Virus record (IMG/VR): IMGVR_UViG_3300027833_000011
Reading direction: 5' to 3' (one strand)
Source of the DNA: a virus
Taxonomy: Duplodnaviria; Caudoviricetes
Length of the DNA: 64,000 bases
The stretch's first letter is position 1, and every line of letters begins with the position of its first letter. The notes beneath the pieces were generated by a model. The model was not told the DNA's origin, searched no databases, and was given only the letters and a program-made list of their open reading frames with translations. Shown here one piece after another: positions 32,095 to 54,447 of this stretch. The translations under genes and the position numbers were made by a program.

Positions 32095-32146
32095 TTTTTA
32101 TTCACTTTATTTTTTAATTTAATACTTTTACGTATATAATAGAGCG

Positions 32147-34124: not shown

Positions 34125-34130
34125 ATAATT

Positions 34131-35240: not shown

Positions 35241-36163
35241 TGAAAAGACCCGATTATAGTGTGATGTATGTTTTACACGTCATGCCAGAAGAAATACAAG
35301 ACGTTGGTAGAATAATAAAAGACTTTGAAATATCGACAAAAGAAAACTCAAATGTGGGTGTTACTTTATATATTGATTTGAATTTTTCAGATGTCTATTA
35401 TGATTGGTCAAATTCTAAAATGACTAAAGAAACTTTTTATCATTTATTTCAAAACTTCTTAATACATTCTCGAAAAAATTTAAATATAATACACAATGTA
35501 AGAGATACGGGGCATTGGGGGGTTAATTCAACTAGAAGAAACGTGATTAACGAATACAAAGATACGTTTGATTATATCGGTTTTATTGATTGTGACATAT
35601 TTTTTGACCCAGCGGCTATTCAGTATGTGTATAAAACATTAGAAAAAGAACCGGGGGAATTTATCGTATTTTCTGGTTTATTACCTAAGATGTGGAACGA
35701 ACACTTTGATGAACTCACACATAAAAAATTTAAGAATGTGACTGATAGGTCATTTCCTTTTAAGGTTAATCCTTTGAGTGTTTATGGGTTCCACCAAACA
35801 CAGAGAAATGAGGTGGGATATACTTCTGATATTATGGTTGGTGGTGGATGGTTTAACGTTTTTTCTACAACGATTTTCGATTACGTAACCATACCGACAG
35901 AATTAGGGGTTTATGGTATTGATGACCATTGGATTCAAGAATGTTGTCGTTTCCTTAATAAATCAGGATGGGACATTAAACAATGTTATAATAATAAGTT
36001 TTTAGTACTAGAGAACCACGGTCGTAAATTTAACCTACCTGAACCTTTTATTATTAAAAAAATGGTTAACGGTGGTAAATTTGAGTACGAAAAAAACGCA
36101 AAACAAAATTACGAAAGTTTATTCAACGAATATAAGAAAAGTATAATCAGTAAGTATTTCTAA
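35240..36163 (+). CDS. GT2/GT7-like glycosyltransferase
   Basis: RRN..., FIDCDIFF, GGG and YGIDD motifs. Confidence 0.65.
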   Translation: MKRPDYSVMYVLHVMPEEIQDVGRIIKDFEISTKENSNVGVTLYIDLNFSDVYYDWSNSKMTKETFYHLFQNFLIHSRKNLNIIHNVRDTGHWGVNSTRRNVINEYKDTFDYIGFIDCDIFFDPAAIQYVYKTLEKEPGEFIVFSGLLPKMWNEHFDELTHKKFKNVTDRSFPFKVNPLSVYGFHQTQRNEVGYTSDIMVGGGWFNVFSTTIFDYVTIPTELGVYGIDDHWIQECCRFLNKSGWDIKQCYNNKFLVLENHGRKFNLPEPFIIKKMVNGGKFEYEKNAKQNYESLFNEYKKSIISKYF

Positions 36164-36165
36164 CT

Positions 36166-37668: not shown

Positions 37669-39116
37669 TAGGTATACATTCGGTCTTTAGTAATGAGAAT
37701 AGAGGGTTTATTTATAATGTAAACACAGAAATTAGTACTGTTGAGTTATATACGTGGGTTTATTCAATATTAACGTGGAAAAGAGATGGTCATCCATTAT
37801 ATCTCTATTGTGATGATAAAATTAATGACTTTGTTATCAAATACGGTTTTTCTCATTTATATGATGAGGTAAGAGTTAGAAATTATAACGACGACATACA
37901 CGAATGTTTTTGGTCGTATAATAAAATACGTGTGATTGAAGAGTTTGGGGAACCAGTATGTTTGTTCGATGTGGACACTTTTTTTAGGAATACCGAATTT
38001 ACTAAGTTACAATATGATATGATAACATATCATTATGAGTTATGGGATTTGGAGTTAAAAAATAAAATGTTTAACAGTAAAGATAGTTTAAAAAACTTAA
38101 GTTTCTACCAAACGGTAGACGATAGTGTTGAGGTTGTTAATGGTAGTTTACTAATTTTTAATAGTTATGATTTAAAAACAGAATTTTTACGTAACGCTAA
38201 AGAGGTTGTTGATACTATAAAAACAATCGATTATGAAAGTCAATTTGAGTATGATTCGTATACCATTTTTATGGAACAGGTTAATTTGGGTTATTTAAAT
38301 AAGAAATATCACTGTGGTAAAGTTTCTAAAAGAAATGAGTGGGGAGATTATAGATTTAACAGGAACGAACCATTTGTTCATTTAGGTCATAATAAAGAAC
38401 GATTGGAGTATGGTAATCCACAAACAAAACAAAGATATGTTCAGGTAATTAAGGAGAAGATTATTGAGTTAGGATATCCTGAGTTTGAAAAGTTATTTAC
38501 CTTAACGACGTTCGAAGGTGATAAGACCCAAAACTCTTTAACACCTCAAAGGGTTAAACCAACCGCTAGAAATATGGGTGATAAGATAAGTTCTGAATTG
38601 TTCACTAAATGGTATGGTGATAATGCGGAGTTATTGAAAGATAGTCGATTTGACATTGCGATATGGGGTTCTATATTGGGTAATGACATTGACTTGATTA
38701 TATCAACGTCTAAAGGGGTTAATGTAAGTGATAAAGACTTAGAAGATTTTATGTTATCAATACATAGGTCAGGTGATTATCTCAGTATTACTGTTGAGGT
38801 ATTATATACCAATAATATTGACTATTTTAGAGAATTTAGAATGGAAAATTCTCAAAAAGTAAAAGAAGACATTCTTATTGGGTTTGTTTCTGAAGCGGAT
38901 TATGAGTCAAACGGTGAGTTAAGAACGGTGGGTAACTTAAAGTTTTATGAAGGACCATTTAACGATGCTTACTATAAATCAACAAATAAACATGATGAAG
39001 TTCTATTTATAGATTCAGTAAAAGATATAAAAAACAACGATGGTTATACACATTTTTCATCTGAGGTTTATAATACCATATATGAAAGGTTTGGAATTTT
39101 CAGTATGTTAGGCTGA
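37665..39116 (+). CDS. GT-A-like (DUF6734-like) domain fused to a nucleotidyltransferase-like domain
   Basis: N-terminal LYCD...FWSYNK...CLFDVD; C-terminal WGSILGNDIDLII. Confidence 0.55.
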   Translation: MIGIHSVFSNENRGFIYNVNTEISTVELYTWVYSILTWKRDGHPLYLYCDDKINDFVIKYGFSHLYDEVRVRNYNDDIHECFWSYNKIRVIEEFGEPVCLFDVDTFFRNTEFTKLQYDMITYHYELWDLELKNKMFNSKDSLKNLSFYQTVDDSVEVVNGSLLIFNSYDLKTEFLRNAKEVVDTIKTIDYESQFEYDSYTIFMEQVNLGYLNKKYHCGKVSKRNEWGDYRFNRNEPFVHLGHNKERLEYGNPQTKQRYVQVIKEKIIELGYPEFEKLFTLTTFEGDKTQNSLTPQRVKPTARNMGDKISSELFTKWYGDNAELLKDSRFDIAIWGSILGNDIDLIISTSKGVNVSDKDLEDFMLSIHRSGDYLSITVEVLYTNNIDYFREFRMENSQKVKEDILIGFVSEADYESNGELRTVGNLKFYEGPFNDAYYKSTNKHDEVLFIDSVKDIKNNDGYTHFSSEVYNTIYERFGIFSMLG

Positions 39117-39154
39117 AAAAATATTAACTGAATATTTATAATAAAAGAATATAG

Positions 39155-41266
39155 ATGGCATATCTAAAGAAAAATATAGAAACATTAATTGATATTAAAA
39201 TTACAGACAAAGGTAGGGAGTTAATTTCTACAGGTAAGTTCTGTAACATTGAGTATTTTCAGGTTGGTGATTCTGAATTTGACTATAAAAACGAAACTAT
39301 CTTTAAGAGAGATGGGAAGAAAGACACGCAGATTGTGTTTAGAGCTAAAGATAAGGATTCGGATGTTAAATATCCAATACCTGTCGGTAGTGAAAGTCCT
39401 GACGACCCATTAAGTTGTAATACTTACGGTAGGGTTTACCCAAATCATCAAGAAGAGGTTGTAAGTAAGAAAGTAGAGTTTTTAGGTGTGACACAAAATC
39501 AAAATATAAAGACACCGTTAGGTATATGTGTGCCATTGATGAACTTTGATGGGACAGATACTTTGGTGACTAACAAGTTAATATCTTGTGAGTATATTTT
39601 AATCAAATTTCCCCAAGACCCGTCAAACGTTTTAGATACTGATGGTCCTTGTTTATGGTATAAAGTCGTTTCGTTTATTGATGAGAATACGATTCAATTA
39701 GACAGACCTTTACCTAACTATTCTTTTGTTACTGACCTTAGTAAAGAGGCGACATTATTTGAATACGCAAAAAGAGAGACTACGGAATATTTAGATTTCA
39801 ATGTTGCGTGGACTGAGGAGTTTGCTGGTTTTGATGTTAACTTACCAAGAACATTTGCTGAAGGGTCTAAATATCTATCGGCTAAAGAGATGTTCGGTTA
39901 TACGTCATACGAGCATGGAGACAATTATTATTCATGTAACCCTGAACCAACAACGACCACTACAACGACAATATGTCCTCCTGAGTTTTTATCATTGGAC
40001 CTAACAAGAGAACCTACAGTACAATTATTTAGTAATGTTGAAGTAAGTGGAGAGAGTTGGGATTATTGTTCTTCTTATGTAGATTCTTACGGTAAAGAGG
40101 TTTATGTGTATCCTGACGAACAAAAATTTATTGGTATAATACATTATACTAAATGGGAAGACTATTATGGAACGGGTGAATGGTGGAAAGAATTTGACGG
40201 TGAATTCGAATTAAACCTACCAACGTTAATGTACCATAGAGATGAAGATAATAAAATGGGACATAAGTTTAAAATGGGTTCAATCAATAACTACGTTAAG
40301 TCGTTAGTGAATGATGAAATGGATTCTGAAGGTGAAGTTTATTTCGATTTAATTGATACAACAAGTAATCAAAATATTGTTGGTAAGATATTCCCACACA
40401 AACAAGCGATTGTTATCGACGACGAAGAGATATTAATGGCATTATCAATGAAGTCTAATAGAAATTGGACATTACCGGCACCAAAGGCGGTTAGAATATC
40501 GTCAGATGCTGATTGTATCGATTCTCCTGATGATGTTATGTTACCTAAAGACTTAACAAAACAAGTTTTTATTTCTTATATGTTCTACAATAAGAATAAC
40601 AAAATGTATTCGGCACCATCGGCTCAATACGTTAGGGTTGACCCTAGTGGTACTGATGATTTTGATGTTGCGGTTTCATTTAAAGATGGTTTTAATTTCT
40701 TAAGAGATAAGATTATCACGGACAACAATCCAGGGTTTCAAGCGACTAATTTCTATATTTTAGTACAACAGGTTGATACTAAAGATAAACCATTACCTGA
40801 CGAATGGAGGTATATTGAGTATACTGATAGTTTAAATGGGTTTACTGGTGGTAACATATTAAGTTCTCACTTAACCGGAACTAAATTCATAGTCAACTCT
40901 GAACTATATAATAACGCAAATGCGTTCAACTACAGACAGTTAATTGGTTATCCTAATCAGAATGAAAGAAATAATCTAATCTTTGGTGATGAGTTTATGT
41001 TAATGGGGGATGTTACCCTAAACAAACAACACAGTGTTTATGTTATGAACTACATAGTAGACCTACCAAGTAATAAGTTTATAAGGTCACAAAACCCGAC
41101 ATGGGACCAAGACACTGACAGTAAAAAACAGGACTTATATATTACCGAAGTTGCTTTATACAACGACGATAAGGATATGGTTGCAATTGGTAAGGTGTCA
41201 AAACCACACAAAAGAAAGGTTGACCCTGCTAGTAATCAGGTTATATCGGTTAAATTAGATTTTTAA
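39155..41266 (+). CDS. Virion structural protein (baseplate/tail-associated) with a short Thr stalk
   Basis: N-terminal KITDKGRE...FQVGDSE and C-terminal YITEVALYND..DMVAIGK motifs typical of large myovirus virion proteins; contains PTTTTTTTICP. Confidence 0.65.
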   Translation: MAYLKKNIETLIDIKITDKGRELISTGKFCNIEYFQVGDSEFDYKNETIFKRDGKKDTQIVFRAKDKDSDVKYPIPVGSESPDDPLSCNTYGRVYPNHQEEVVSKKVEFLGVTQNQNIKTPLGICVPLMNFDGTDTLVTNKLISCEYILIKFPQDPSNVLDTDGPCLWYKVVSFIDENTIQLDRPLPNYSFVTDLSKEATLFEYAKRETTEYLDFNVAWTEEFAGFDVNLPRTFAEGSKYLSAKEMFGYTSYEHGDNYYSCNPEPTTTTTTTICPPEFLSLDLTREPTVQLFSNVEVSGESWDYCSSYVDSYGKEVYVYPDEQKFIGIIHYTKWEDYYGTGEWWKEFDGEFELNLPTLMYHRDEDNKMGHKFKMGSINNYVKSLVNDEMDSEGEVYFDLIDTTSNQNIVGKIFPHKQAIVIDDEEILMALSMKSNRNWTLPAPKAVRISSDADCIDSPDDVMLPKDLTKQVFISYMFYNKNNKMYSAPSAQYVRVDPSGTDDFDVAVSFKDGFNFLRDKIITDNNPGFQATNFYILVQQVDTKDKPLPDEWRYIEYTDSLNGFTGGNILSSHLTGTKFIVNSELYNNANAFNYRQLIGYPNQNERNNLIFGDEFMLMGDVTLNKQHSVYVMNYIVDLPSNKFIRSQNPTWDQDTDSKKQDLYITEVALYNDDKDMVAIGKVSKPHKRKVDPASNQVISVKLDF

Positions 41267-42934: not shown

Positions 42935-43624
42935 ATGATACATCCAGAAATTTACAGTTATTTTGATGATAAAGAGGCTTGGAAAAGAAAGTATATGAGA
43001 CCTGAGGCTTTATCAATGGAGTGGGATATGATGTTAGAAGAGGTTGGACCTGATGTCTACCAATTTCCACTATTTAAAGAAGAGTTATGTGCTAAATTAA
43101 TTGAAGAAGCTGAAGCGACACAATCGTGGACACATAAAAGACACGCGTTTTATCCCACTACGGATATGTTGGTCGAGACCTTTGGGTTTGAAGAGATATA
43201 CCATGAGATTATGGATGACTATATTATGGGAGCGGCAAGACACATTTACCAATTAAATGGTCAGAATTGGGACCAAGGAAATGTATATTCCGAGAATTTT
43301 ATGATACGTTATTCACCTGAAGAACAGGGACATTTATCATTACATTATGACCAATCGTCAATATCGTGTAACGTAGCATTAAATAACGACTTTGAGGGTG
43401 GTGGTACGTATTTCTCAAGACATAAGGTATTGGCGAAAGCTAAAGGAACAGGTTATGTTACATTTCATCCTGGACAGATAACACACAAACACGGAGGGAT
43501 GCCGACAAACAAAGGAACCCGATATATTATTGTTTCATTTATGAATGACGATAAAAATAGAGAAAATCACATTAATGATTTAGAAAGATTTGCTAACGAA
43601 AAAGGATTCTATAATGATAAATAA
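42935..43624 (+). CDS. 2OG-Fe(II) dioxygenase, PLOD (procollagen lysyl hydroxylase) catalytic-domain-like
   Basis: PDVYQFPL, PTTD, NFMIRY.PEEQ..L.LHYD, NVALN..FEGGG, HPG.ITHKHGG.PT..GTRYI.VSF; HxD, distal H and R are intact. Confidence 0.8.
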   Translation: MIHPEIYSYFDDKEAWKRKYMRPEALSMEWDMMLEEVGPDVYQFPLFKEELCAKLIEEAEATQSWTHKRHAFYPTTDMLVETFGFEEIYHEIMDDYIMGAARHIYQLNGQNWDQGNVYSENFMIRYSPEEQGHLSLHYDQSSISCNVALNNDFEGGGTYFSRHKVLAKAKGTGYVTFHPGQITHKHGGMPTNKGTRYIIVSFMNDDKNRENHINDLERFANEKGFYNDK

Positions 43625-44393
43625 GATAGTACATTTCTCAGATTTACATTTAAGATTATATCAATATCATGCTCAATATAAAGAAATATTGACTGATATG
43701 TTACAACAATTTAAAGACGAGGAACCTGACCGTATAGTTTTTACTGGTGATTTAGTACATTCAAAAAATCAGATTACACCTGAACTTATTGATGTGACAA
43801 GGTGGGTGTTAGATGAATGTTCTAAAATTGCGAGGACGGTATTAATAATTGGTAATCATGATTTCTTAGAAAACAATATGGATAGGATGGATTCAATCAG
43901 TCCTATTTTAGATTCTATGAATAATGATAATATTGATTATTATATGGATAAGGGGTTGTATGAAGATGAGAATGTGGTGTGGGTTGTGTATTCGTTAAGG
44001 ACACATAACGAACCACCTGTTATTGATAGAGTTGAGGGTAAGAAACACATTGGATTATTTCACGGACCAGTACATGGGTTAACGACTGACGTTGGTTATG
44101 AATTTTCAGAAGGTTATGACCCGTTTAAATTTAAAGGTTGTGATTTGGTATTGTGTGGTGATATACATAAAAGACAGATATTTGATATTCCTGAAGGTAA
44201 GGCGTATATGGTCGGTTCGACAATACAACAAAACTTTGGAGAGTCAGTTTCAAAACATGGGTATGGTACCTACTATATAGATAAAGATGAATATTCGTTT
44301 ACGGACTTAGATAATAAGTCACCTTTCTTACAATTTAAGATTACGGATATTGAGGACATTGAGAATGGGAAAGAAGTTTTGCTTAACGCTTGA
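43614..44393 (+). CDS. sbcD: SbcD/Mre11/gp47-like metallophosphoesterase nuclease
   Basis: SDLH, GDLVH, GNHD, FHG and GDIH motifs; ATG start preferred over the tracked TTG at 43590. Confidence 0.88.
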   Translation: MINKIVHFSDLHLRLYQYHAQYKEILTDMLQQFKDEEPDRIVFTGDLVHSKNQITPELIDVTRWVLDECSKIARTVLIIGNHDFLENNMDRMDSISPILDSMNNDNIDYYMDKGLYEDENVVWVVYSLRTHNEPPVIDRVEGKKHIGLFHGPVHGLTTDVGYEFSEGYDPFKFKGCDLVLCGDIHKRQIFDIPEGKAYMVGSTIQQNFGESVSKHGYGTYYIDKDEYSFTDLDNKSPFLQFKITDIEDIENGKEVLLNA

Positions 44394-45252
44394 TAAAAAC
44401 GTTTTAGATTTTTGTAAATTAAATGACATTGAAGATGTTAGGGAATTTGCTATAAAATGTTTTGAAAAGGGTCTGACTATTGAGAAATATGGTGAGACAC
44501 CTTTACTTATGCCCAAAGAAATCAAGACGGTGATTAAAGAAATTGAAAAAGAAGTAATCAAAGAAGTTGAAGTACCTGTTGAGGTCATTAAAGAGGTTAA
44601 AGTAGAGGTTCCCGTTGAGAAAATAGTGGAAAAAATTGTTGAAAAACCTATTGAAGTGATAAAGGAAGTCATTAAAGAGGTACCAGTCGACAAAATAGTG
44701 GAAGTGGAGAAAGAGGTCGTTGTCTATAAAGAAAGACCCGTAGAAATCATAAAAGAGGTTGAGAAGATAGTTGAAAAAGAAGTCCCAATAGAGAAAATTA
44801 AGGAAATCGAAGTAATTAAAGAGGTCTATATAACGGATGACAAGCAGGTTGAGGAACTTGGTGATAAAATAACACAGTTAGAGAAACAAAATAAGGATTT
44901 GTCCCAAAAAGTGATTAAATTAGAGACAACTCCCCCTAAAATTGTGGAAAAAGAAATACCGATTGAGAAAATTAAGATAGTTGATAGGGAAGTCCCTGTT
45001 GAAATCATCAAAGAGGTTGAGAAAATAGTAGAAAAACCTATTGAAGTGATAAAGGAAGTCATTAAAGAGGTAAAAGTAGAGGTTCCTGTTGAAAAAATCG
45101 TCAAGATTAAGGATAACTCTGAAATAGAAAAATTGACTAAACATAATAAAGAATTAATTGAGTCATTAGCTAAATATGACGAAATGTTTAGTAAATTTGA
45201 ACAGAAAATAAGCGTTAAAAAATCAAAAAGAGATAATTTATATGATGAGTAG
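44365..45252 (+). CDS. V/E/K/I-rich repeat protein (alveolin/articulin-like EKIVEVP repeats)
   Basis: Repeated EVPVEKIVEK / EVIKEV units; 42-nt exact duplication at 44641 and 45031; start uncertain (44350 or 44365). Confidence 0.7.
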   Translation: MGKKFCLTLDKNVLDFCKLNDIEDVREFAIKCFEKGLTIEKYGETPLLMPKEIKTVIKEIEKEVIKEVEVPVEVIKEVKVEVPVEKIVEKIVEKPIEVIKEVIKEVPVDKIVEVEKEVVVYKERPVEIIKEVEKIVEKEVPIEKIKEIEVIKEVYITDDKQVEELGDKITQLEKQNKDLSQKVIKLETTPPKIVEKEIPIEKIKIVDREVPVEIIKEVEKIVEKPIEVIKEVIKEVKVEVPVEKIVKIKDNSEIEKLTKHNKELIESLAKYDEMFSKFEQKISVKKSKRDNLYDE

Positions 45253-45562
45253 TTTAATATTGTTTGCGTTTGTGGCATATGGTATGACCACAATAATAGT
45301 TTACGGTTCTATATTAGAAGGAATTCGTAATTTCATACATAAAAAGGGGGAAAATAATTCGTTTATGAAGTTTTTCTCAGACTTAGTAGGTTGTGTGTTA
45401 TGTACATCGACATGGGTAGGATTCTTCTTATCAATAACGATGTTTTCACCAACTAATACTATTTATGGTATATCCCTACCGATGACAATATTCTTTGACG
45501 GAATGTTTTCAGCGGGAATAGTATGGGGAATAAACACACTTATAGAGTGGTTTGAAGATTAA
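45242..45562 (+). CDS. Small membrane protein, DUF1360-like
   Basis: Hydrophobic helices and LVGCVLCTSTWVG (CxxC..W). Confidence 0.55.
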   Translation: MMSSLILFAFVAYGMTTIIVYGSILEGIRNFIHKKGENNSFMKFFSDLVGCVLCTSTWVGFFLSITMFSPTNTIYGISLPMTIFFDGMFSAGIVWGINTLIEWFED

Positions 45563-45566
45563 TATT

Positions 45567-46178
45567 ATGATTAAATTTTTAAAGAAATTATTTAGTAAAG
45601 ATGTTTTATTTGACTTATCAAAGATTGATGGGTTTGTTAAAAACTATGAATTAGACTTAGATAAGTTTGAAAAGGACTGGATGACAGGTGATGGTGTTTC
45701 TGATTACGTTAAAGGTGTTAATCACGAATGGTTATCTCCGGAATCGGTAAGTTTAGAAAATGAAGAAATACACATAACGTCTATACATAGACCGATTAAT
45801 GTTGGGGGTGAAATATTTGACTATAAAACAGGTGTGGTAACAACAACACGTTTTTTTAGTTATGGTTATTATGAGTTCTCAGTAGATTTACCAAACAAAA
45901 GTTCACATACGCCAACTGTTGAGATATTCAACCCTGAAAGTAACATTGAATTAGTTACGGGTAATTATGGGGTTAAAAAAATTGGTTTATTATATTTAAA
46001 CAAGAAAATAGAACTTTACCACGACAATATTTTAGTTAAGAAGATTAAGAACGGGAATATAGGTTCTGAGGTGAAGTTAAGAATTAAGCACGGATTAAAT
46101 CCTTCGGTTGAAGGTACCCACATTAAAGGTAACGATACTTTAAGGTTGATTAGTTTAGACTATTACAGAAAAAAATGA
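45567..46178 (+). CDS. Degenerate GH16/ConA-like beta-jelly-roll protein
   Basis: ESVSLENEEIHIT and FSYGYYEF resemble GH16, but no complete ExDxxE; ATG 45567 preferred. Confidence 0.45.
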   Translation: MIKFLKKLFSKDVLFDLSKIDGFVKNYELDLDKFEKDWMTGDGVSDYVKGVNHEWLSPESVSLENEEIHITSIHRPINVGGEIFDYKTGVVTTTRFFSYGYYEFSVDLPNKSSHTPTVEIFNPESNIELVTGNYGVKKIGLLYLNKKIELYHDNILVKKIKNGNIGSEVKLRIKHGLNPSVEGTHIKGNDTLRLISLDYYRKK

Positions 46179-47104
46179 TACTAAAATTAGGTTCTAAAGG
46201 TGAGAGTGTTAAAGAAATACAAGAGTTTCTCGGTATTACAATGGATGGTGATTTCGGTCCAAAAACTGAGAGAGCAGTTAAAGAATGGCAAAAGACAAAA
46301 GGACTATTTGTTGATGGTATTGTTGGTCCTTCCACTTGGAACGCTATGGGTATTGCTACTACTGATATATCGGAAATTGCGTTAACAGATGGAATAGTTA
46401 TCAATAAGACTTATTTACCCGACGGTGAATATTATAAAGGGCCTGTGGATAAAGAATACTTATTTTTACACCACACGGCAGGTGGAAATAACCCATATAG
46501 AACTATATTACATTGGGGTAGAGACAGTAGAGGTAGAATTGCAACTGAGTTTGTTATTGGAGGTAAGTCAATTGATGGTGACGACCAATACGATGGTGAG
46601 ATAGTTCAATCATTTTCTGAAGGGGGTTATTCATGGCATTTGGGTAAGAATGGCTCACAACATATGCACGTACACTCAGTAGGTATTGAGGTTTGTAATT
46701 ATGGTTATCTAACTAAAGGTGGGTACAAAAAGAAAATTAATGGTAGACGTGTTTGGGTGGATAGAGACCCTGATTCTTATTACGCATACACAGGTAGTAA
46801 AATACGTGAAGAGGATATTGTGTTTACTGAGGAATTTAGAGGTTATACTGCGTGGCACGCATACACAGACAAGCAAATTGAGTCTTTAAAGGAGTTAATA
46901 CTTTACATCAAAGAAAGAGATGGTATTGACATACAAAAGGGATTAATTAGTGAATATAAAAAAAATGGTTTGGATTCATTTGAATGGAATTCAGATGCAT
47001 ATTATGGTAGAATTAAGGGTATGTGGACACATACAAACACCAAAAAAGGTAAGTCAGATATGTCACCCCAACCCAAACTGATTGAGATGTTACTCAGTCT
47101 ATAA
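46175..47104 (+). CDS. Endolysin: PG-binding domain + N-acetylmuramoyl-L-alanine amidase (Amidase_2)
   Basis: LKLGSKG..V...Q...DG.FGPKT...DGIVGP.TW; LHHTAG, GIEVC, WTH and KSD. Confidence 0.9.
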   Translation: MILKLGSKGESVKEIQEFLGITMDGDFGPKTERAVKEWQKTKGLFVDGIVGPSTWNAMGIATTDISEIALTDGIVINKTYLPDGEYYKGPVDKEYLFLHHTAGGNNPYRTILHWGRDSRGRIATEFVIGGKSIDGDDQYDGEIVQSFSEGGYSWHLGKNGSQHMHVHSVGIEVCNYGYLTKGGYKKKINGRRVWVDRDPDSYYAYTGSKIREEDIVFTEEFRGYTAWHAYTDKQIESLKELILYIKERDGIDIQKGLISEYKKNGLDSFEWNSDAYYGRIKGMWTHTNTKKGKSDMSPQPKLIEMLLSL

Positions 47105-47122
47105 AAAATACAAATTTTAATG

Positions 47123-47148
47123 AATCCTGTCAGAAATGACGGGATTTC
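47123..47148 (+). terminator. Hairpin after the endolysin
   Basis: AATCCTGTCA-GAAA-TGACGGGATT with one G-U pair; weak T tail. Confidence 0.6.
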
Positions 47149-47160
47149 AAGTTTAATATA

Positions 47161-47592
47161 ATGAATATGGAAAGTTATAAAATTAGAAAGGCGGTCTTCG
47201 AAGATTTAGAAGATATTTGTCGATTATTAAGCGAATCGTTTATTGAAACCAAAGAACCGATTAGGTATTGGTGGAGAATAATGGAGAACACATCGATACA
47301 TACATATGTGGTTGAGAGTGAAGGATATATTGTAGGTACGGCTACATTACACGTATTAGAAAAACTAATCGGTGGAGGTTCATATGTTGGGCAAATTGAG
47401 GATGTTTGTATATCAAAATCACACAAAGGTGAAGGGTTAGGACAAATGTTAGTCAATCAATTAATCGAATCCTCAAAAGAATTACGTTGTTATAAGGTTA
47501 TTTTAAATTGTGATGAAAAATTAGTACCATTTTATGAGAAAAATGGGTTTTACCAGAAAGAAATACAAATGCGTTTGGATAATAAAAAATAA
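47161..47592 (+). CDS. GNAT acetyltransferase, glucosamine-6-phosphate N-acetyltransferase (GNA1)-like
   Basis: GQIEDV...GEGLG...CYKVILNCDEKLVPFYEKNGF parallels recalled yeast GNA1 GHIED...GQGLG...CYKIILDCDEKNVKFYEKCGF. Confidence 0.8.
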   Translation: MNMESYKIRKAVFEDLEDICRLLSESFIETKEPIRYWWRIMENTSIHTYVVESEGYIVGTATLHVLEKLIGGGSYVGQIEDVCISKSHKGEGLGQMLVNQLIESSKELRCYKVILNCDEKLVPFYEKNGFYQKEIQMRLDNKK

Positions 47593-47605
47593 AGTCATAC
47601 TTTTG
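47574..47605 (+). promoter_or_regulatory. Host (Bacteroidota sigmaA)-type early promoter
   Basis: TTTG-N20-TACTTTTG, perfect consensus. Confidence 0.75.
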
Positions 47606-47629
47606 TGTTCTAATTAAAAAGATACTTAT

Positions 47630-47866
47630 ATGACGACAGTAACATTTAGCATTTGGGACGGTGGGAAACTAATCACCGAATATCCTTTAGAGATTCAAGA
47701 AGAAAACATAGAGAAAACACATATTGACGCATCGTCAGTATGGGATGAGTATACTGTATTGGCAGAATGGGGTGACGGGAAAACTGCTACAATCATGCCG
47801 TTCACATATTCCAACTCACTTAATGGGGAGGTGTCTAATAATCAACCAATTGAATTCCTACTATAA
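47630..47866 (+). CDS. Hypothetical protein
   Basis: ORF directly downstream of a consensus promoter. Confidence 0.65.
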   Translation: MTTVTFSIWDGGKLITEYPLEIQEENIEKTHIDASSVWDEYTVLAEWGDGKTATIMPFTYSNSLNGEVSNNQPIEFLL

Positions 47867-47868
47867 TT

Positions 47869-48117
47869 ATGTTTAGAAAAGATGATTTATATACGTTATT
47901 TCTCGTGGTGATTATAATATCAGTGTTGGGAATTTCTCTCGGTTTTATATCGTTATTAGTGTTTTTTGTGTCTAATCTATCGTTAATGGGGTCTTTAGTC
48001 GTTGCGACATTTACACACGTAATTTTGTTTTATATGTTATACCGTAAAATAGTAGGGGAGTTAAAAGAAATGAATGTCGATGGTTTAGATTTCGATGATA
48101 TCGAAGACTTAGGTTAA
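47869..48117 (+). CDS. Small hypothetical membrane protein
   Basis: Two long hydrophobic segments and an acidic tail. Confidence 0.65.
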   Translation: MFRKDDLYTLFLVVIIISVLGISLGFISLLVFFVSNLSLMGSLVVATFTHVILFYMLYRKIVGELKEMNVDGLDFDDIEDLG

Positions 48118-48123
48118 AAAAAA

Positions 48124-48155
48124 TTTGTGAGGGTCAGATATTTGGCTTATCTTTG
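48124..48155 (+). promoter_or_regulatory. Host-type early promoter
   Basis: TTTG-N20-TATCTTTG. Confidence 0.8.
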
Positions 48156-48176
48156 TAGTATCAAAATAAAGAAACT

Positions 48177-48725
48177 ATGACAAGACAAATAATCGAAAAT
48201 ACAACTGTAAACTATTGGGGTCAAACTCAGGACACTAAGAAAATCAAGGATGAATTATTCTGTGATAGCAACACAATTGCTCAGAATGGGAGTTCATTGG
48301 CGATGTCAGAGAAAAATGACTGTGTGGTACGTGCGTTTATGGTTGTTTTAGATTTGTCTTACGATAAGACTCACAAATGGGTTACAGATAACTTTAATAG
48401 AGTTCACCGAAAAGGGACGTATACTGGTCGTTACTTAACTAATGTCTTAGGTAAGAGAAAAAACTACAAAAAGATTAGTTTGTTTGGTGTGTCTCCAGGT
48501 CGTACATATTCTTTCGGTAAGAAAGAGTTATACAACCCTAAATACAAGGGTAAAAAGACTTGTTATACGGTTAAGTCTTTCATGGAGAACTATCCGAAGG
48601 GACGTTATTTCATCATCGTTAAAGGTCACGCATTAGCTTTGGTTGACGGAGTATTATATGGTAACGGTAGTGAACAGTTTAACGGATTTCGTAGAAGAAT
48701 CCACTATGTGGTAAAGGTAGGGTAA
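48177..48725 (+). CDS. Hypothetical protein with a Cys/His/Asp pattern (possibly papain-like fold)
   Basis: NDCVVRA...GHALALVDG. Confidence 0.45.
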   Translation: MTRQIIENTTVNYWGQTQDTKKIKDELFCDSNTIAQNGSSLAMSEKNDCVVRAFMVVLDLSYDKTHKWVTDNFNRVHRKGTYTGRYLTNVLGKRKNYKKISLFGVSPGRTYSFGKKELYNPKYKGKKTCYTVKSFMENYPKGRYFIIVKGHALALVDGVLYGNGSEQFNGFRRRIHYVVKVG

Positions 48726-48979
48726 TGGAAAAAGAACACAGGTACGAAGATAACTTACACATTATAGATGTTATCATAGATGAACTTATGTTGGTAAGAA
48801 CAATTGAAGAGATTACGGAATTCGACAAGGCGGTTAACATTACGTTCTTAAAGATGTTCCCAACGGTTAATCCACAGGCGGATATTATTGAGGGGTTGTT
48901 TAGGGATTACTGTAAGGATTATACGGTTAAGGTGTGGTATGAAAGTTTATTTAAAATACCGATTGAAAAGATTGTGTAA
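48725..48979 (+). CDS. Hypothetical protein
   Basis: Stop/start-coupled ORF. Confidence 0.6.
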   Translation: MEKEHRYEDNLHIIDVIIDELMLVRTIEEITEFDKAVNITFLKMFPTVNPQADIIEGLFRDYCKDYTVKVWYESLFKIPIEKIV

Positions 48980-49002
48980 TACAAACTTAAATATTATCTT
49001 TG
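48971..49002 (+). promoter_or_regulatory. Host-type early promoter
   Basis: ATTG-N20-TATCTTTG; contains the shared 15-mer TTGTGTAATACAAAC. Confidence 0.75.
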
Positions 49003-49045
49003 TACTATCAATAAGAAAGATATAAACCTAAAAAATCCGATTCAA

Positions 49046-49579
49046 ATGACAAACGCCAAAAACATCATCGTAAAAAAAGCCGAAGAATTAATCGACTACT
49101 TAGTTCAGAAAGAAGAGTCTCGTTTCAACGACATCAAAGAAAGTTACGAACTTTTCTTAAAAGAAAACCCATCAGTATATCAGTACGGTCCTTACGAAAG
49201 AAAGAAATGTTACAGTCTATCTGAGAACGGAGAAACTGACTACACAAACGTAAGATATTTCTTCCACAACAGAGGAGCGGTTAAATTACTCGAAGAGGTA
49301 AGAATGGCGACTGACGAGAAAGGGATGGTTAAGTATCTTGAAAACTACCGAGAACTAAACAAAGTTAAATTGGTTCGAGCGATTGAGAAGTACATCACTG
49401 AAGACATGACCGTGAAAGGTGAGGTATACATCAACGAAGGTGTGAAAGGTGTTGAGGTGTCAGCGGAGGTTAATACAACTGAAGGGTTAAGAAACTTTAG
49501 AACCAACGCAATATTCGCAGGGGGATACATCCAAAGATATCACTACCGATACAGAGGAGGTCTTCACTTAGTGAAGTAA
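49046..49579 (+). CDS. Hypothetical protein
   Basis: Bounded by its own promoter and terminator. Confidence 0.75.
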   Translation: MTNAKNIIVKKAEELIDYLVQKEESRFNDIKESYELFLKENPSVYQYGPYERKKCYSLSENGETDYTNVRYFFHNRGAVKLLEEVRMATDEKGMVKYLENYRELNKVKLVRAIEKYITEDMTVKGEVYINEGVKGVEVSAEVNTTEGLRNFRTNAIFAGGYIQRYHYRYRGGLHLVK

Positions 49580-49584
49580 GACCA

Positions 49585-49613
49585 AAGGGGGACGAAAGTC
49601 CCCCTTATTTTTT
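49585..49613 (+). terminator. Rho-independent terminator
   Basis: AAGGGGGAC-GAAA-GTCCCCCTT followed by ATTTTTT. Confidence 0.88.
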
Positions 49614-49622
49614 GAGATAATG

Positions 49623-49654
49623 GTTGTGTAATACAAACATAATGACTATATTTG
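49623..49654 (+). promoter_or_regulatory. Host-type early promoter
   Basis: GTTG-N20-TATATTTG; same 15-mer as at 48972. Confidence 0.75.
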
Positions 49655-49680
49655 TATAACAATAAAAAAAAACAAATATT

Positions 49681-49977
49681 ATGTCAGTCAACAAAGTTTT
49701 AGTTCACACACAGTACGAAGAAAATTATGGTTTTAATGAGGGTAACTATCATTGGAAGATGAAAGGTGGTCACACATTTCAAATCGAGATGGATGTTGAT
49801 TTATTAATGTATAGTGACGCGGAGAAAGTGTTCGGTGAGATGTTGGAATTACATTGTAATGACCATGAGCGTTTTACCTACGCAGGATTTGAAATCCAAT
49901 GGCAAGAGCCAACGGTTTTGGGGACTCAGGAGGATTACATTAAGACGAATCAAGAACTAAATCCTGAGACTGTATAG
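49681..49977 (+). CDS. Hypothetical protein
   Basis: ORF after a consensus promoter. Confidence 0.7.
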   Translation: MSVNKVLVHTQYEENYGFNEGNYHWKMKGGHTFQIEMDVDLLMYSDAEKVFGEMLELHCNDHERFTYAGFEIQWQEPTVLGTQEDYIKTNQELNPETV

Positions 49978-49978
49978 T

Positions 49979-50707
49979 ATGGAAGGATATGTATACATAG
50001 CAAGAATCATTGACCACGGAGGTAAATTCGTAAATGGGTACCATAAGATTGGTCTCTCAAAACAGTATAAGGTACGTGAGACACAGTTAAACTCAACGCA
50101 CTTACCTTTTGATGTTATGATGGTAAGAGTCTTTGAAACGGAAGATATGAACAAATTAGAGGGTATTCTTCACGTTTGTTTCGAGGACTATAGAGTTATT
50201 AAAGAGTATGATGACCGTAGGAATATTACAACAGAGTGGTTTGATGTTTCGGATATTGACACCTTTCATTCACGATTGGATAAGATGGTAAGTTATCTAT
50301 CTGTTAAGGAATTGGATTTAGGTCTTAGTGTTGATAACGACGAAACCCTAACTGATGAAGAAAAGGTTGATGTTAAAAACAAAATTGGTCGGGCAAAGTC
50401 TACGAATCTAAAGGTTACCATTGGTGATAGAGTTATTACTAACAAAACCGCAAAAGAAACGTATGTGTCGGTTATCAACGAAATCACTAACGGTGTTAAC
50501 AGGTCAGTCATTGAATACAATTTCTCATCTTTCTTTAAAAACGATAAGGACGAGTTTAGAGACTCACTTAGTGACCATAATAAGGTTATGATGGACTGTG
50601 GGATGTTTATGTCCACATGGGGTTCTAATGTAACTAAAATCAAACGAATTAAAATGATTTGTGAGAAGTTAGGGGTGGAAAATGTGGAGTGTGAAATTAT
50701 CGATTAA
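49979..50707 (+). CDS. GIY-YIG-superfamily (T5orf172-like) nuclease-domain protein
   Basis: GYVYI...KIGLS...R..QL...E..LH..F...R...EWF. Confidence 0.75.
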   Translation: MEGYVYIARIIDHGGKFVNGYHKIGLSKQYKVRETQLNSTHLPFDVMMVRVFETEDMNKLEGILHVCFEDYRVIKEYDDRRNITTEWFDVSDIDTFHSRLDKMVSYLSVKELDLGLSVDNDETLTDEEKVDVKNKIGRAKSTNLKVTIGDRVITNKTAKETYVSVINEITNGVNRSVIEYNFSSFFKNDKDEFRDSLSDHNKVMMDCGMFMSTWGSNVTKIKRIKMICEKLGVENVECEIID

Positions 50708-50722
50708 CGGATAAAATAAAAG

Positions 50723-50751
50723 ACCCTCACTATTGAAAGTGGGGGTTTTTT
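50723..50751 (+). terminator. Rho-independent terminator overlapping the putative sbcC promoter
   Basis: ACCCTCACT-ATTGAA-AGTGGGGGT plus T run; ATTG-N20-TATATTTA at 50732..50763. Confidence 0.75.
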
Positions 50752-50779
50752 CTGTTATATTTAAAACAAAATACGATTT

Positions 50780-53122
50780 ATGTTAGATAAAGATAAATTG
50801 GAAAATCCAAAGATAAAGATAGTATGGGAGGACGTTGCTGAGTCATTTACTCAGGAGAGAATTGCTCGTATTAAGTCTTATTTTTCGAAGAAGTACAAAT
50901 CAAAGAATGTTACGGTTGTGACCAAAGTAGTGGTATCCAAAAACGAAGCAAAATTGGATTCCATTGATATGGCGGATAACATCTTAGACACACAATACCA
51001 AAAAGAGTTGGTAAAGGATTATATAAAGACTAATGACATTAAAGTTGAATGGGATTTATTATCTAAGTTAGATGACCGTGTTAATAATGAAATAGATAAG
51101 TCACACCAAAACACAATAAGGTTTAGACAGTGGTATATTAAAAGGTTAGAGTTTTCTAACTTCTTATCTTATGGTGAGGGTAACACAGTTCCGTTTGACG
51201 ACTTAGGTGGTATCACCTGTATTGAGTCTGACCCACCAAACTTCGGTGGTAAAACTGTATTAGCAGTGGATTTATTAATGTTCTTATTCTTCAATAGAAC
51301 AACAAAGACTAAAAAGAACGAAGAGATATTCAATCAATTTACAACCAAAGATGAGGTTCATGTAAGAGGTGATGTTATGATTGATGGTGACGAATACGTT
51401 ATTGTCAGAAACATTAAGAGAAAACCAAAAAGAGCTGGTGGGTTTACCGTAACGTCTTCATTGGAGTTCATCAAGAAAATGAGTGACGGTTCACTAGTCA
51501 ATCTGTCAGGTGAACAAAGAAGAGAAACTGAGGAGTTTATTAAGTCAGCCATTGGAACTGAAGATGATTTCTTAACTACTATATTGACAACAGGTACAAA
51601 TTTGGAGGAGTTAATCGATTCCAAACCTACTGCGTTGGGTCAGGTTTTTACTAAGTTTATTGGTTTAGAATCGTTAAGAGAAAAAGAAGATGTTGCTAAA
51701 AAGATATTTTCAGAATGGAACAAATCGTTAATCTCAAACGTATACAATTCTCAGGATTTAAAACAGACAATATTAGACTGTAAAGAGACCATCAAAGAAA
51801 ATAAGGTTTTAATTGTTGATAAGACAAAACTATTGGGGATTAAAGAAGGTGAGTTAAAAAACGCAATTGATAAAAAAGATTTATTGATTGAGAAGAAACA
51901 CTCTGATATCGATGAGGAATTAACCAAACTAAACCCTGAGAGATACTTAACAGAGATTAAGGAATTCGAGGATAAGGTTACGGTAACCAAACACTATTTT
52001 GAAGAAATTAAGGTGACCGAACCATCTAAATATTATCACGGTGACGAACATAAGGAAGTCAGAGATTCAATCAATGAGGGTAAAGTTAATCAGACAATAA
52101 GTGAGAGAGTAATTAAAGAATTGGGAGAGATGATTACCCAACTTAAAGAGGGGGAGATTTGTCCTACATGTAAAAGAGCGTTGGACGATGTTGACCATAC
52201 TGACGAAATTAAACAAAAAGAGAAAGAACTTAAGAAAGAAAAAAAATCACTTAAGTCCGTTGAAAAAGAACTTATAACATTAACTGATAAAGATGAGAAA
52301 CAATCCATCCTTAAGAAACAATTTGAGGATTATGACAGAGATAAGTTACGAAAAGAGAAGTATCGTTTAGAGTTAATGACTAAAGAGTTGGAATTAAAGT
52401 CTATGACTGATACAATGGACAAATGGGAGTCTAACAAGTATAAGTTAGAGGAGAATATGGTCATTGAAAAGGATTTAATGTTGATTAAGACAAAGATTGA
52501 CGGTTTAGCCGCTGAGGTTGATACGTTTAAGTACTTAATCCAAGACTATAACAACACTATTAAGACTAATGAGACCAAAATCACAGAATCTGAACAATTA
52601 ATGGATAAAATTGTGAAAGAAGAGGACTATAAGCAGATATTTGAGTCGTTCTTAGCGATATTTGGTAAGAACGGTATATCAAAGATGATTTTAAGGTCTA
52701 TGATACCTGTTATCAACTCAGAATTAGCTCGTCTGTTGGAGGATAGTTGTAGATTCACATTAGATGTTAGAATATCTGAAAAGAATGAGATAATGTTCGT
52801 TATGATTGATGATGAAACAAGAGTAGAGAAACCAATGGGTTCTGGTTCAGGGTATGAACGTACAATTGCGTCTATGGCGTTAAGAGCGGTGTTATCTAAA
52901 GTGTCAGCATTACCAAAACCAAATGTTATAGTTATGGATGAGGTGTTTGGTAAAGTTGCTGATGAAAATTTAGAGATGGTTGGTGGATTTTTTAGAAAAA
53001 TTAAAACATATTTTGAACATATATTTGTGATTACTCACAATCCATTAGTCAAAAATTGGTCTGACCATGTAATTACTATAAATAAGAACGACAACGTTTC
53101 AAAAATTAAAAATATTATATAA
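50780..53122 (+). CDS. sbcC: SbcC/Rad50/gp46-like ATPase
   Basis: NFGGKT Walker A, coiled coil with CPTC zinc hook, GSGYE signature, MDEVFG and ITH motifs. Confidence 0.9.
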   Translation: MLDKDKLENPKIKIVWEDVAESFTQERIARIKSYFSKKYKSKNVTVVTKVVVSKNEAKLDSIDMADNILDTQYQKELVKDYIKTNDIKVEWDLLSKLDDRVNNEIDKSHQNTIRFRQWYIKRLEFSNFLSYGEGNTVPFDDLGGITCIESDPPNFGGKTVLAVDLLMFLFFNRTTKTKKNEEIFNQFTTKDEVHVRGDVMIDGDEYVIVRNIKRKPKRAGGFTVTSSLEFIKKMSDGSLVNLSGEQRRETEEFIKSAIGTEDDFLTTILTTGTNLEELIDSKPTALGQVFTKFIGLESLREKEDVAKKIFSEWNKSLISNVYNSQDLKQTILDCKETIKENKVLIVDKTKLLGIKEGELKNAIDKKDLLIEKKHSDIDEELTKLNPERYLTEIKEFEDKVTVTKHYFEEIKVTEPSKYYHGDEHKEVRDSINEGKVNQTISERVIKELGEMITQLKEGEICPTCKRALDDVDHTDEIKQKEKELKKEKKSLKSVEKELITLTDKDEKQSILKKQFEDYDRDKLRKEKYRLELMTKELELKSMTDTMDKWESNKYKLEENMVIEKDLMLIKTKIDGLAAEVDTFKYLIQDYNNTIKTNETKITESEQLMDKIVKEEDYKQIFESFLAIFGKNGISKMILRSMIPVINSELARLLEDSCRFTLDVRISEKNEIMFVMIDDETRVEKPMGSGSGYERTIASMALRAVLSKVSALPKPNVIVMDEVFGKVADENLEMVGGFFRKIKTYFEHIFVITHNPLVKNWSDHVITINKNDNVSKIKNII

Positions 53123-53123
53123 T

Positions 53124-53864
53124 ATGAAGATTGATAGAGTTTATGTCATCACAATGGATATGAGTGATGAATACAAAGATGAGTTATTTGAGAGAGTGTT
53201 AAATTTACCACTACCTTCAAATACACCTGTTGAGTTTAAACAAGGGTTTCCAGGTAAGGATTTATTGGAAAGACCTGAAGACTTTCCTGAGTATCGTATA
53301 TACCCACATTGGAACCTTAACAACCCAGAGGGTTGGTGGTGGTGGCAAAGACCAGCGTTATCAGGTGAAGCGGGTGGTATGATATCACACACAATGTGTT
53401 GGGAAGATGCGTATGAGAAGGGGTATGAAAATATTATGATTATTGAAGATGACTTTACGGTCGAAGAACCTATTGATTGGGGTATCTTTAAAGAACTTGA
53501 TGGTTATGAATGGGATTTATGTTTAATGGCTCACAATTCATTACACGAACATTTTTCAGATATTATGAAACCTTTAAATATTGGTAGAGAACATTTTATC
53601 AGACCAACGTTCTTTTATAATACTCATACTTATATACTTTCTTCGGGAGGTATTAAGAAATTAGTTGAGGACCATTTAGATGTGTTAAAACAAAATATTA
53701 TAGTATCTGACGAATTTTTATCTGCAGTTACTTCATCACATCCAAGACCTGATTTAAGAGAGATGTACATAACTAATATGTCAGCGGTTGCTACAAAAGT
53801 TAATTATACAGGACAAACAAGAAGTGAAGGTTTGGGTAATTCTTTAACCGAGACTGAAAAGTAA
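53124..53864 (+). CDS. GT25 glycosyltransferase, COLGALT (procollagen galactosyltransferase)-type
   Basis: RP...GE.G..ISH, IIEDD, WDL, DEFL....HP and terminal SLTET correspond to recalled COLGALT1 motifs. Confidence 0.75.
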   Translation: MKIDRVYVITMDMSDEYKDELFERVLNLPLPSNTPVEFKQGFPGKDLLERPEDFPEYRIYPHWNLNNPEGWWWWQRPALSGEAGGMISHTMCWEDAYEKGYENIMIIEDDFTVEEPIDWGIFKELDGYEWDLCLMAHNSLHEHFSDIMKPLNIGREHFIRPTFFYNTHTYILSSGGIKKLVEDHLDVLKQNIIVSDEFLSAVTSSHPRPDLREMYITNMSAVATKVNYTGQTRSEGLGNSLTETEK

Positions 53865-53878
53865 TATATTTATAAGAT

Positions 53879-54433
53879 ATGGGATTAGATATTAGTTATT
53901 ATAAACTTGGGAATAAAGTTGAGGTTGACGACACTATAGAAGAGTGGTCAGAAGAGTTTTATGACAAGTATGGGCACGATTTGATATGGTTATATAATAA
54001 TTATGAAATGGAACAATCAGACGACCTTGACGGTTTTTATAACGCAGAAAGATTAGGTGGTTTTAGAGCGGGTTCGTATTCAGGATACGGACAGTATAGA
54101 AGGACCTTACGTAGATTATCTATTGTTGCGATGGCAGAAAATAAAGAACTGGCTGAAAAATATAAAGATGAAATCCCATTTGACTTACAACTCAACTTTA
54201 GTGACTGTGAAGGGTTTATTGGTCCATTCTCAAGTGTTACTTTAAGAGACCAATATAGAGAATTTCATGGTCCAATCATAAAAGACATTATAAAGATGGC
54301 TAAATATGGTGTAAAAACTGACATATACAAAGCTATCTCTAGAGAGGAGTTAGAGTATTTTGCTGGTTTGTATATTAATTGGAAAACGGCATTTGAAGAA
54401 ACTTCTAACGTAGGTGTTGTATATTACACCTAA
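53879..54433 (+). CDS. Hypothetical phage protein (MGLD... N-terminus)
   Basis: Clean ORF; FSDCEG motif; no function recognised. Confidence 0.7.
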   Translation: MGLDISYYKLGNKVEVDDTIEEWSEEFYDKYGHDLIWLYNNYEMEQSDDLDGFYNAERLGGFRAGSYSGYGQYRRTLRRLSIVAMAENKELAEKYKDEIPFDLQLNFSDCEGFIGPFSSVTLRDQYREFHGPIIKDIIKMAKYGVKTDIYKAISREELEYFAGLYINWKTAFEETSNVGVVYYT

Positions 54434-54447
54434 TTGTTATATATTTG
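54416..54447 (+). promoter_or_regulatory. Host-type promoter for clpP
   Basis: GTTG-N20-TATATTTG. Confidence 0.7.

Follow-up and report, generated by a model that had tools for sequence, protein, structure and literature searches.

A minimal COLGALT-type GT25 protein of a tailed phage and its predicted role in the glycosylation of collagen-like fibres

Does a glycosyltransferase gene lodged among the replication genes of a large, tailed marine phage belong with the animal collagen galactosyltransferases, and if so, what would its product glycosylate? The question is raised by a 64,000-nucleotide stretch of the virus record IMGVR_UViG_3300027833_000011 (Duplodnaviria; Caudoviricetes), here called the window, in which one open reading frame (ORF) of 246 amino acids (aa) runs from ATG to TAA on the plus strand (53124-53864). 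A preliminary description, made from the letters alone, had assigned its product (P0001) to family GT25 as a protein of the COLGALT type rather than of the bacterial lipooligosaccharide (LOS) type, and had paired it with a PLOD-like lysyl hydroxylase gene at 42935. In this study, sequence, profile, predicted fold and phylogeny agreed on the COLGALT-type assignment. We consider it likely that P0001 is a soluble, single-domain, Mn-dependent inverting GT-A enzyme that works like the C-terminal lobe of COLGALT1 and glycosylates hydroxylysine of phage collagen-like fibres, a reading that draws on sequence, a structure model, genomic context and analogy. The phage fibres would then probably carry animal-style glycosylated hydroxylysine.

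Relationship to animal and bacterial GT25 proteins

P0001 is recognized by the Pfam family PF01755 (Glyco_transf_25; E-value 3.8e-9, 37.1 bits at a cut-off of 24 bits), with a match that spans only profile positions 3-107 of 199 and lies in the N-terminal half of the protein. In a phmmer search against PDB sequences, the catalytic lobe of human COLGALT1 was the best match (E 7e-7), whereas the solved bacterial GT25 reached an E-value of 0.4. A profile of 28 stand-alone GT25 homologues (alignment A1, over which all residue conservation below was counted) matched COLGALT1 over the full length (E 4e-29), but bacterial GT25 over the central 120 residues only (E 4e-8). The AlphaFold model of P0001 (predicted local distance difference test, pLDDT, 92) superposed on COLGALT1 with a template-modelling (TM) score of 0.74-0.79 and a root mean square deviation (rmsd) of 3.3, compared to a TM score of 0.40-0.50 on a bacterial beta-1,4-galactosyltransferase (8xlz). 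When the same model was searched against Swiss-Prot folds, the top ranks were taken by 16 animal GT25 proteins (TM 0.75-0.79), namely COLGALT1, COLGALT2, the inactive GT25 member 3 and insect GT25 members, and LpsA, LgtB, Lic2B and LgtE came next (TM 0.51-0.58). The best fold matches in PDB and Swiss-Prot were all GT25 proteins. The model shows a GT-A fold with an acidic metal/uridine diphosphate (UDP) site (I-E-D-D at 107-110, D110 invariant), which is the same GT25 GT-A fold as in the C-terminal lobe of human COLGALT1, also named GLT25D1 (PDB 9evj, 9u7h, 8zgc; PMC12987934, PMC11897130).

A phylogenetic tree was built from 152 GT25 domains, including COLGALT1 of a sea cucumber (P0224) and 12 canonical gammaproteobacterial GT25 proteins. 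A single branch (support 85 in the Shimodaira-Hasegawa-like approximate likelihood ratio test, SH-aLRT) parts these 12 from the window protein, the hydroxylase-fused forms discussed below and animal COLGALT1. Such a tree had been proposed in the preliminary description as a check on the assignment, and it places P0001 on the COLGALT side, with unnamed Pfam-GT25 proteins from 101 sampled gammaproteobacterial genomes (the class of G067) as the outgroup in place of Lic2A or LgtB by name. P0001 lies within a clade of 18 stand-alone GT25 forms (SH-aLRT 98), whose neighbours are mostly hydroxylase-fused forms.

Pfam and several source annotations label the family 'LPS biosynthesis', and phages carry surface-modifying glycosyltransferases. 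P0001 might thus be a GT25 of the LOS or lipopolysaccharide (LPS) type that remodels the host surface in infection, e.g., for superinfection exclusion. LgtB, LgtE, Lic2A/Lic2B, LpsA and 8xlz indeed share with P0001 the CAZy and Pfam family, the GT-A core and the motifs G-E-x-G-x-x-x-S-H and E-D-D. However, they superpose on it only at TM 0.40-0.58 and rmsd 5-11, they offer no aligned D-E-F-L, H-P-R or S-x-T tail, they act on oligosaccharide acceptors, and their genes lie in LOS clusters, whereas the gene studied here lies between sbcC and clpP in a phage. LgtB, LpsA and Lic2B match the fold of P0001 less well than every animal COLGALT, the PF01755 model covers only half of the protein, the tree branch separates P0001 from the canonical gammaproteobacterial proteins, and fusion of its relatives to a lysyl hydroxylase would be senseless for an LPS role. 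We regard a function in host surface remodelling as extremely improbable.

Marine metagenomes are rich in the GT25 gene at 97-99% protein identity. A tblastn search of P0001 against 50,697 GenBank phage records gave no match, and the family is absent from that set.

The lysyl hydroxylase partner and collagen-like proteins

The gene at 42935-43624 (plus strand) encodes a stand-alone PLOD-type lysyl hydroxylase domain of 229 aa (P0002), which matches the hydroxylase domain of human LH3 (E 3.7e-34) and mimivirus L230 (E 2e-27) as well as the Pfam families OGFOD2-like and 2OG-FeII_Oxy. The Fe/2-oxoglutarate site is intact (H137-x-D139, the histidines of THKHGG, and R196). P0002 is the predicted upstream enzyme, which would make the hydroxylysine acceptor.

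The preliminary description had proposed, as a check, a search of relatives for fusion or adjacency of PLOD and GT25, and such fusions are common. An exhaustive search with P0001 yielded 322 homologues, and 39 of the best 150 of these are fused at the C-terminus to a hydroxylase domain (E 1e-20 to 1e-68 against P0002). They comprise GT25-hydroxylase proteins of about 450 aa and GT4-GT25-hydroxylase proteins of about 800 aa, GT4 being a further glycosyltransferase (GT) family, and one homologue unites GT25, a PLOD-type GT and the hydroxylase in a single protein. In 34 of 80 related IMG/VR loci the hydroxylase directly follows GT25, and for the stand-alone GT25 genes no hydroxylase was found within 10 kb in these loci. 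A GT4 or a second hydroxylase partner was sought in the window and not found. The marine phage and bacterial fusions (e.g., P0083, P0108 and P0094) are uncharacterised and are the nearest tree neighbours of the window clade; their GT25 domains are 25-38% identical, and their hydroxylase domains are 36-51% identical to P0002. They hold in one polypeptide what the window keeps in separate genes 9.5 kb apart, and the window gene is an unfused, minimal variant of this GT25-hydroxylase system.

Lack of co-occurrence with the PLOD-like gene had been named beforehand as a reason to abandon the pairing. In whole-record searches, the hydroxylase was present in 7/7 phage records with a stand-alone GT25 and a completeness of at least 90%, at distances of tens to 150 kb; these seven represent about four lineages, so the counts are not independent. 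In three of the lineages the hydroxylase is fused to GT4, whereas G001 and G002 have a PLOD-type GT instead. As control we used 29 jumbo-phage records of at least 100 kb, picked by their similarity to the ClpP of the window (50-76% identity). The hydroxylase was found in none of these 29, including none of the nine near-complete ones, and a GT25-like match, weak and partial, was found in one.

Very long collagen-like proteins are encoded in 5/5 tested genomes with GT25 and hydroxylase. The presence of collagen repeats was dropped as evidence, since repeats also occur in 10 of 14 control phages; presence alone is therefore uninformative and it is the composition that discriminates. In the collagens of phages with GT25 and hydroxylase, 17-51% of the Gly-X-Y triplets have Lys in third place and about 0% have it in second place, whereas third-position Lys amounts to 0% in 8 of 9 control phages, in which Ser or Thr prevails at this position. 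A third-position Lys followed by Gly is the lysyl hydroxylase site, and its hydroxylated form is recognised by GLT25D1 (PMC12987934). Fusions, co-occurrence with its negative control and the matching Lys-rich collagens together place P0001 downstream of a PLOD-type hydroxylase on collagen with third-position Lys and bear out, on genomic evidence, its proposed role as functional partner of the hydroxylase at 42935.

The region downstream of the window was read in metagenome contigs that share 95% DNA identity with its last 11 kb. In these strains a PLOD-type GT of 468 aa (PF25342) is encoded 16.2 kb after GT25, and at about 39 kb after GT25 follows a collagen-like protein of 938 aa (232 triplets, 37% third-position Lys) and then one of 971 aa. 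The preliminary description had envisaged a two-step route of Lys hydroxylation and glycosylation. The route itself is supported, but because of the downstream PLOD-type GT it would comprise three enzymes (hydroxylase, GT25 and a second GT) rather than two steps.

Some further observations concern the collagens and hydroxylases of other genomes. In the control jumbo phages G035, G038, G040, G042, G043, G044, G054 and G058 (L201-L209), which lack the hydroxylase and GT25, the third positions of the long collagen-like proteins are 50-96% Ser or 61-64% Thr without any Lys, and these collagens may be targets of a different, Ser/Thr-directed O-glycosylation. G001 (L086/L091) and G002 (L087/L090) encode two tandem lysyl hydroxylase paralogues, which are 45-48% and 30-34% identical to P0002, where the window has one. 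PLOD-type hydroxylase domains that are 41-47% identical to P0002 also occur in bacterial metagenome-assembled genomes (MAGs; L210-L226), in ORFs of about 215-880 aa, from Thiothrix/Thiolinea, Granulosicoccaceae, Rhodobacteraceae, Bugula-associated Chromatiales and Blastocatellia. Aureibacter tunicatorum (P0094) has a fusion of peptidase C39, GT25 and hydroxylase; scanning of genome contigs with P0094 gave no match, whereas an alignment of hydroxylase domains did. Two Flavobacteriaceae MAG contigs (L221, L223) bear GT25-hydroxylase fusions.

Conserved and altered residues and the predicted pathway

The three motifs that had been claimed for the GT25 ORF are all present: GEAGG at residues 81-85, SDEFL at 195-199 with SHPR at 205-208, and NSLTETEK at 239-246. 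The replacement of the usual GC by GG in GEAGG was also seen correctly, and it is shared within the family, as residue 85 is G in 18 and C in 10 of the 28 aligned stand-alone homologues; the more distant relatives, sea-cucumber COLGALT1 included, all have G-C at this position. The resemblance to COLGALT1 noted in the preliminary description is borne out on both counts. HMMER pairs the DEFL-to-HP stretch of P0001 with a COLGALT1 stretch that opens with DEFL and closes with HP, and S-L-T-E-T of P0001 has its counterpart in S-D-T-E-T of the sea-cucumber protein.

Residues shown to be essential in human GLT25D1 by cryo-electron microscopy and mutagenesis (PMC12987934) were mapped onto P0001 through HMMER and MAFFT alignments. 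The Asp pair D436/D437 corresponds to D109/D110 (D109 conserved in 23/28), Y494 to Y165 (28/28), and D522/E523 of DEFL to D196/E197 (28/28 and 27/28). In GLT25D1, D522 is the catalytic base and E523 anchors the amino group of hydroxylysine (PMC12987934). The H-P motif is found at H206-P207, and the lid motif S569-x-T571 corresponds to S240-x-T242 (27/28 and 28/28, respectively), an equivalence that rests on motif and position, as MAFFT set both motifs two residues out of register; the distance of the sea-cucumber S-D-T-E-T from Y561 agrees with the human numbering. Other residues of note in P0001 are E82, G84 and G85 in GEAGG, E129-W-D131 and H206-P207-R208.

Several points weigh against P0001 being a COLGALT-like enzyme of hydroxylysine. 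Of the residues with which the acceptor cleft grips hydroxylysine-Gly, Y494 alone is kept; W495 gives way to N166 (a position that is N or Q across the family), K470 to N138 and T562 to E235, and on the donor side the UDP-binding R354 is replaced by Y17. Since the exchange W495A kills the activity of the human enzyme (PMC12987934) and the phage protein has N166 at this place, acceptor binding must differ in detail, and the altered cleft suggests a somewhat different mode of peptide binding. The two-lobe architecture is absent as well: P0001 has no N-terminal GT2-like UDP-Gal-binding lobe, which is important in the human enzyme, and consists of the catalytic lobe alone (residues 1-236). Moreover, the tree is weak at its deep nodes and has an unnamed outgroup, the co-occurrence counts come from few lineages, the collagen and PLOD-type GT genes were read in the 95%-identical strains and not in the window, and GT25 and hydroxylase sit amid replication and recombination genes, away from the collagen genes. 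As the catalytic residues are kept, whereas three cleft residues and the N-terminal lobe are not, P0001 is by its sequence akin to the COLGALT catalytic lobe in its predicted working, yet does not belong fully to the two-lobe family of animals.

The position beside sbcC in a replication and recombination module, distant from the fibre genes, could also indicate that GT25 acts on hydroxylysine or another residue of a non-collagen target, i.e., a virion or host protein, and that the link to collagen is coincidental. The window encodes many Lys-rich proteins, and the residues that choose Gly after hydroxylysine in COLGALT1 (K470, T562) are altered. It is difficult to reconcile such a coincidence with the sharp contrast between 17-51% third-position Lys in phages with GT25 and hydroxylase and 0% in those without, or with the restriction of collagen Lys to precisely the position where hydroxylase and COLGALT act. 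We therefore think a non-collagen target unlikely.

The subclade immediately around P0001 shows changed motifs (GEIGC to GEAGG, YLGR to LMAH, DWD to EWD), and the inactive GT25 member 3 proteins equal COLGALT1 in fold-search score. Both observations would suit a catalytically weakened or non-enzymatic paralogue like animal CERCAM (inactive GT25 member 3), serving as a collagen-binding or scaffold protein. On the other hand, the catalytic base, the Asp pair, the S-x-T lid and Y165 are invariant or nearly so, and the gene is under strong purifying selection, with a ratio of nonsynonymous to synonymous substitution rates (dN/dS) of 0.03-0.10 against strains that are 95% and 76% identical in DNA. 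In addition, no other GT25 was found in the related complete genome G001. An inactive paralogue is, in our judgement, very unlikely.

For an active hydroxylysine glycosyltransferase, we propose the following mechanism. P0002 would turn the third-position Lys of Gly-X-Lys in the phage collagen-like fibre proteins into 5-hydroxylysine. In P0001, D109/D110 together with Mn and the lid formed by S240 and T242 would hold a UDP-hexose, D196 as general base would deprotonate the 5-hydroxyl of hydroxylysine while E197 grips its amino group, and the hexose would be moved onto the hydroxyl with inversion. The separate PLOD-type GT probably attaches a second sugar. All steps would take place in the cytoplasm of the host, either ahead of virion assembly or while it proceeds, and would lead to glycosylated fibres. 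Acceptor, donor sugar, sequence of the steps and function of the virion glycan are inferred, and by analogy galactose is the most likely sugar.

It is conceivable, albeit with clearly lower probability than the mechanism as a whole, that the same enzyme acts on the same collagen substrate but attaches glucose or another hexose as the first sugar. A glucosyl-hydroxylysine route exists in mimivirus, where L230 makes glucosyl-hydroxylysine and R699 prefers this as acceptor (PMC12279948). R354 and further donor-side contacts of COLGALT1 are not conserved in P0001. The second transferase also differs among phage lineages, the window lineage, G001 and G002 having a PLOD-type GT and G007-G009 a GT4-hydroxylase fusion, and this suggests that the glycans are not uniform. 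Galactose is favoured because the closest fold and the catalytic residues are those of COLGALT1, which is strictly UDP-Gal-specific, and because the lineage holds a GT of the PLOD type, whose animal counterpart adds glucose to Gal-hydroxylysine.

The likeness to the COLGALT1 system extends to its company, as COLGALT1 likewise occurs together with a hydroxylase and a GT of the PLOD type and with collagens that have Lys in third position. P0001 differs by its low identity (about 18-25%), its length of 246 aa, the lack of a signal peptide or an endoplasmic reticulum context, and GEAGG for GELGC; unlike COLGALT1, it would have phage fibres as its substrate and the cytoplasm of the host as its place of action. 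Mimivirus L230 (lysyl hydroxylase and glucosyltransferase, PDB 6ax6), R699 (glucosyltransferase; PMC9546862, PMC12279948) and R655 (PDB 9crz) are, as proposed here, virus enzymes that modify the virus's own collagen-like proteins. However, mimivirus is a giant virus with a eukaryotic host and a glucose route, the glycosyltransferase of L230 is not a GT25, and R655 resembles P0001 only weakly (TM 0.51-0.56).

A literature search on collagen lysine modification returned animals, mimivirus and, in passing, "certain fungi, bacteria and viruses", and nothing on bacteriophages. We see about even chances that tailed phages of the ocean run a complete, minimal and cytoplasmic version of the metazoan collagen Lys pathway on their own fibres with free-standing single-domain enzymes, among which P0001 would be the smallest natural COLGALT. 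This pathway would lead from Lys to hydroxylysine, hexosyl-hydroxylysine and dihexosyl-hydroxylysine, with P0001 acting without the N-terminal lobe and with a different acceptor cleft. The same proposal, held with the same even confidence, takes the stand-alone, two-domain and three-domain forms as a modular toolkit common to phages, bacteria, giant viruses and animals. Hydroxylysine glycosylation of collagen is held to be a metazoan trait with mimivirus as sole viral exception, and a widespread phage version, if true, would alter this picture. The enzyme set would be modular and able to function in the cytoplasm of bacteria with each minimal domain on its own. P0001 would provide a soluble COLGALT catalytic core of 246 aa for studies of donor and acceptor specificity, and the set would offer enzymes for glycosylated recombinant collagen in bacteria. 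Phages would possess virion glycosylation of a second kind, which might influence the stability of the fibres, the recognition of hosts or the protection from proteases. The rule that third-position Lys occurs only alongside hydroxylase and GT25 makes the idea directly testable.

Gene order and transcription signals around GT25

The window is phage DNA with a GC content of about 33% and nearly all ORFs on the plus strand. Its genes include gp32-like, UvsX/RecA-like, RNase H, DnaB-type helicase, ribonucleotide reductase, primase, sbcD, sbcC and ClpP, the last of which resembles megaphage ClpP. The hydroxylase gene is followed by an sbcD/Mre11-like nuclease gene (43614-44393, plus strand). The ORF list begins sbcD at TTG 43590, but the likely true start is the in-frame ATG at 43614, from which the peptide MINKIVHFSDLH, a typical Mre11/SbcD N-terminus, is read. 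As this ATG overlaps the stop codon of the hydroxylase by 11 nt, translational coupling of both genes is suggested. The sbcC/Rad50-like ATPase gene (50780-53122, plus strand) ends with a stop codon 1 nt before the GT25 start codon, and GT25 is therefore probably co-transcribed with sbcC.

The preliminary description had further proposed that the hydroxylase and GT25 genes were once close together, until the block at 44.4-50.7 kb separated them. This part of the description finds no support in the gene order of relatives. In G001 and G002, the nearest outgroups, the order hydroxylase (two tandem copies)-sbcD-sbcC is kept with 2.1 to 2.2 kb between sbcD and sbcC, and a distance of more than 100 kb separates GT25 from these genes; in G001 it directly follows an endolysin homologue. 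Locus L001, whose GT25 is 78% identical to that of the window, already has the same order, intervening block included, and only in this locus and the window lineage does GT25 follow sbcC. Even with the block removed, hydroxylase and GT25 would still flank sbcD and sbcC and would not adjoin. The adjacency of hydroxylase and sbcD, since it is kept in G001 and G002, is old; the spacer between sbcD and sbcC grew in the window lineage (6.4 kb versus about 2.2 kb in G001 and G002), and the position of GT25 beside sbcC is lineage-specific.

Consensus scans place a terminator-like hairpin (50718-50751) and an overlapping promoter-like site (50733-50761) upstream of sbcC on the plus strand, which are likely to mark the start of an sbcC-GT25-ORF184 transcription unit. 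ORF184 (184 aa, 53879-54433, plus strand) lies directly 3' of GT25 and has no Pfam or PHROG match; its place is kept in L001 (31% identity), and it was not found beside GT25 in more distant phages. Between ORF184 and clpP, the same kind of scans located, again on the plus strand, a second terminator-like hairpin (54411-54432) and a TTG-N20-TAnnTTTG site (54417-54447), and the unit likely ends here (54411-54447). Six exact TTG-N20-TAnnTTTG sites occur in the window, at 47575, 48125, 48972, 49624, 54417 and 55788, all on the plus strand and just 5' of ORFs. The chance expectation is 2.2 for both strands, and six were reached in 3 of 100 shuffles. These sites fit a promoter and a host of the Bacteroidota type.

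The 6.4-kb block between sbcD and sbcC (44350-50707) holds about 12 small genes, among them an endolysin gene (PG_binding_1 and Amidase_2, 46175-47104) and a T5orf172/MUG113 gene (49979-50707). G007 and G008 have a single open frame of about 1060 aa that contains both the sbcD-like and the sbcC-like match. Further upstream in the window, a 500-aa protein with a Glyco_tranf_2_4 domain is encoded at 36166-37668, amid unannotated genes for proteins of 300-700 aa (31162-41266).

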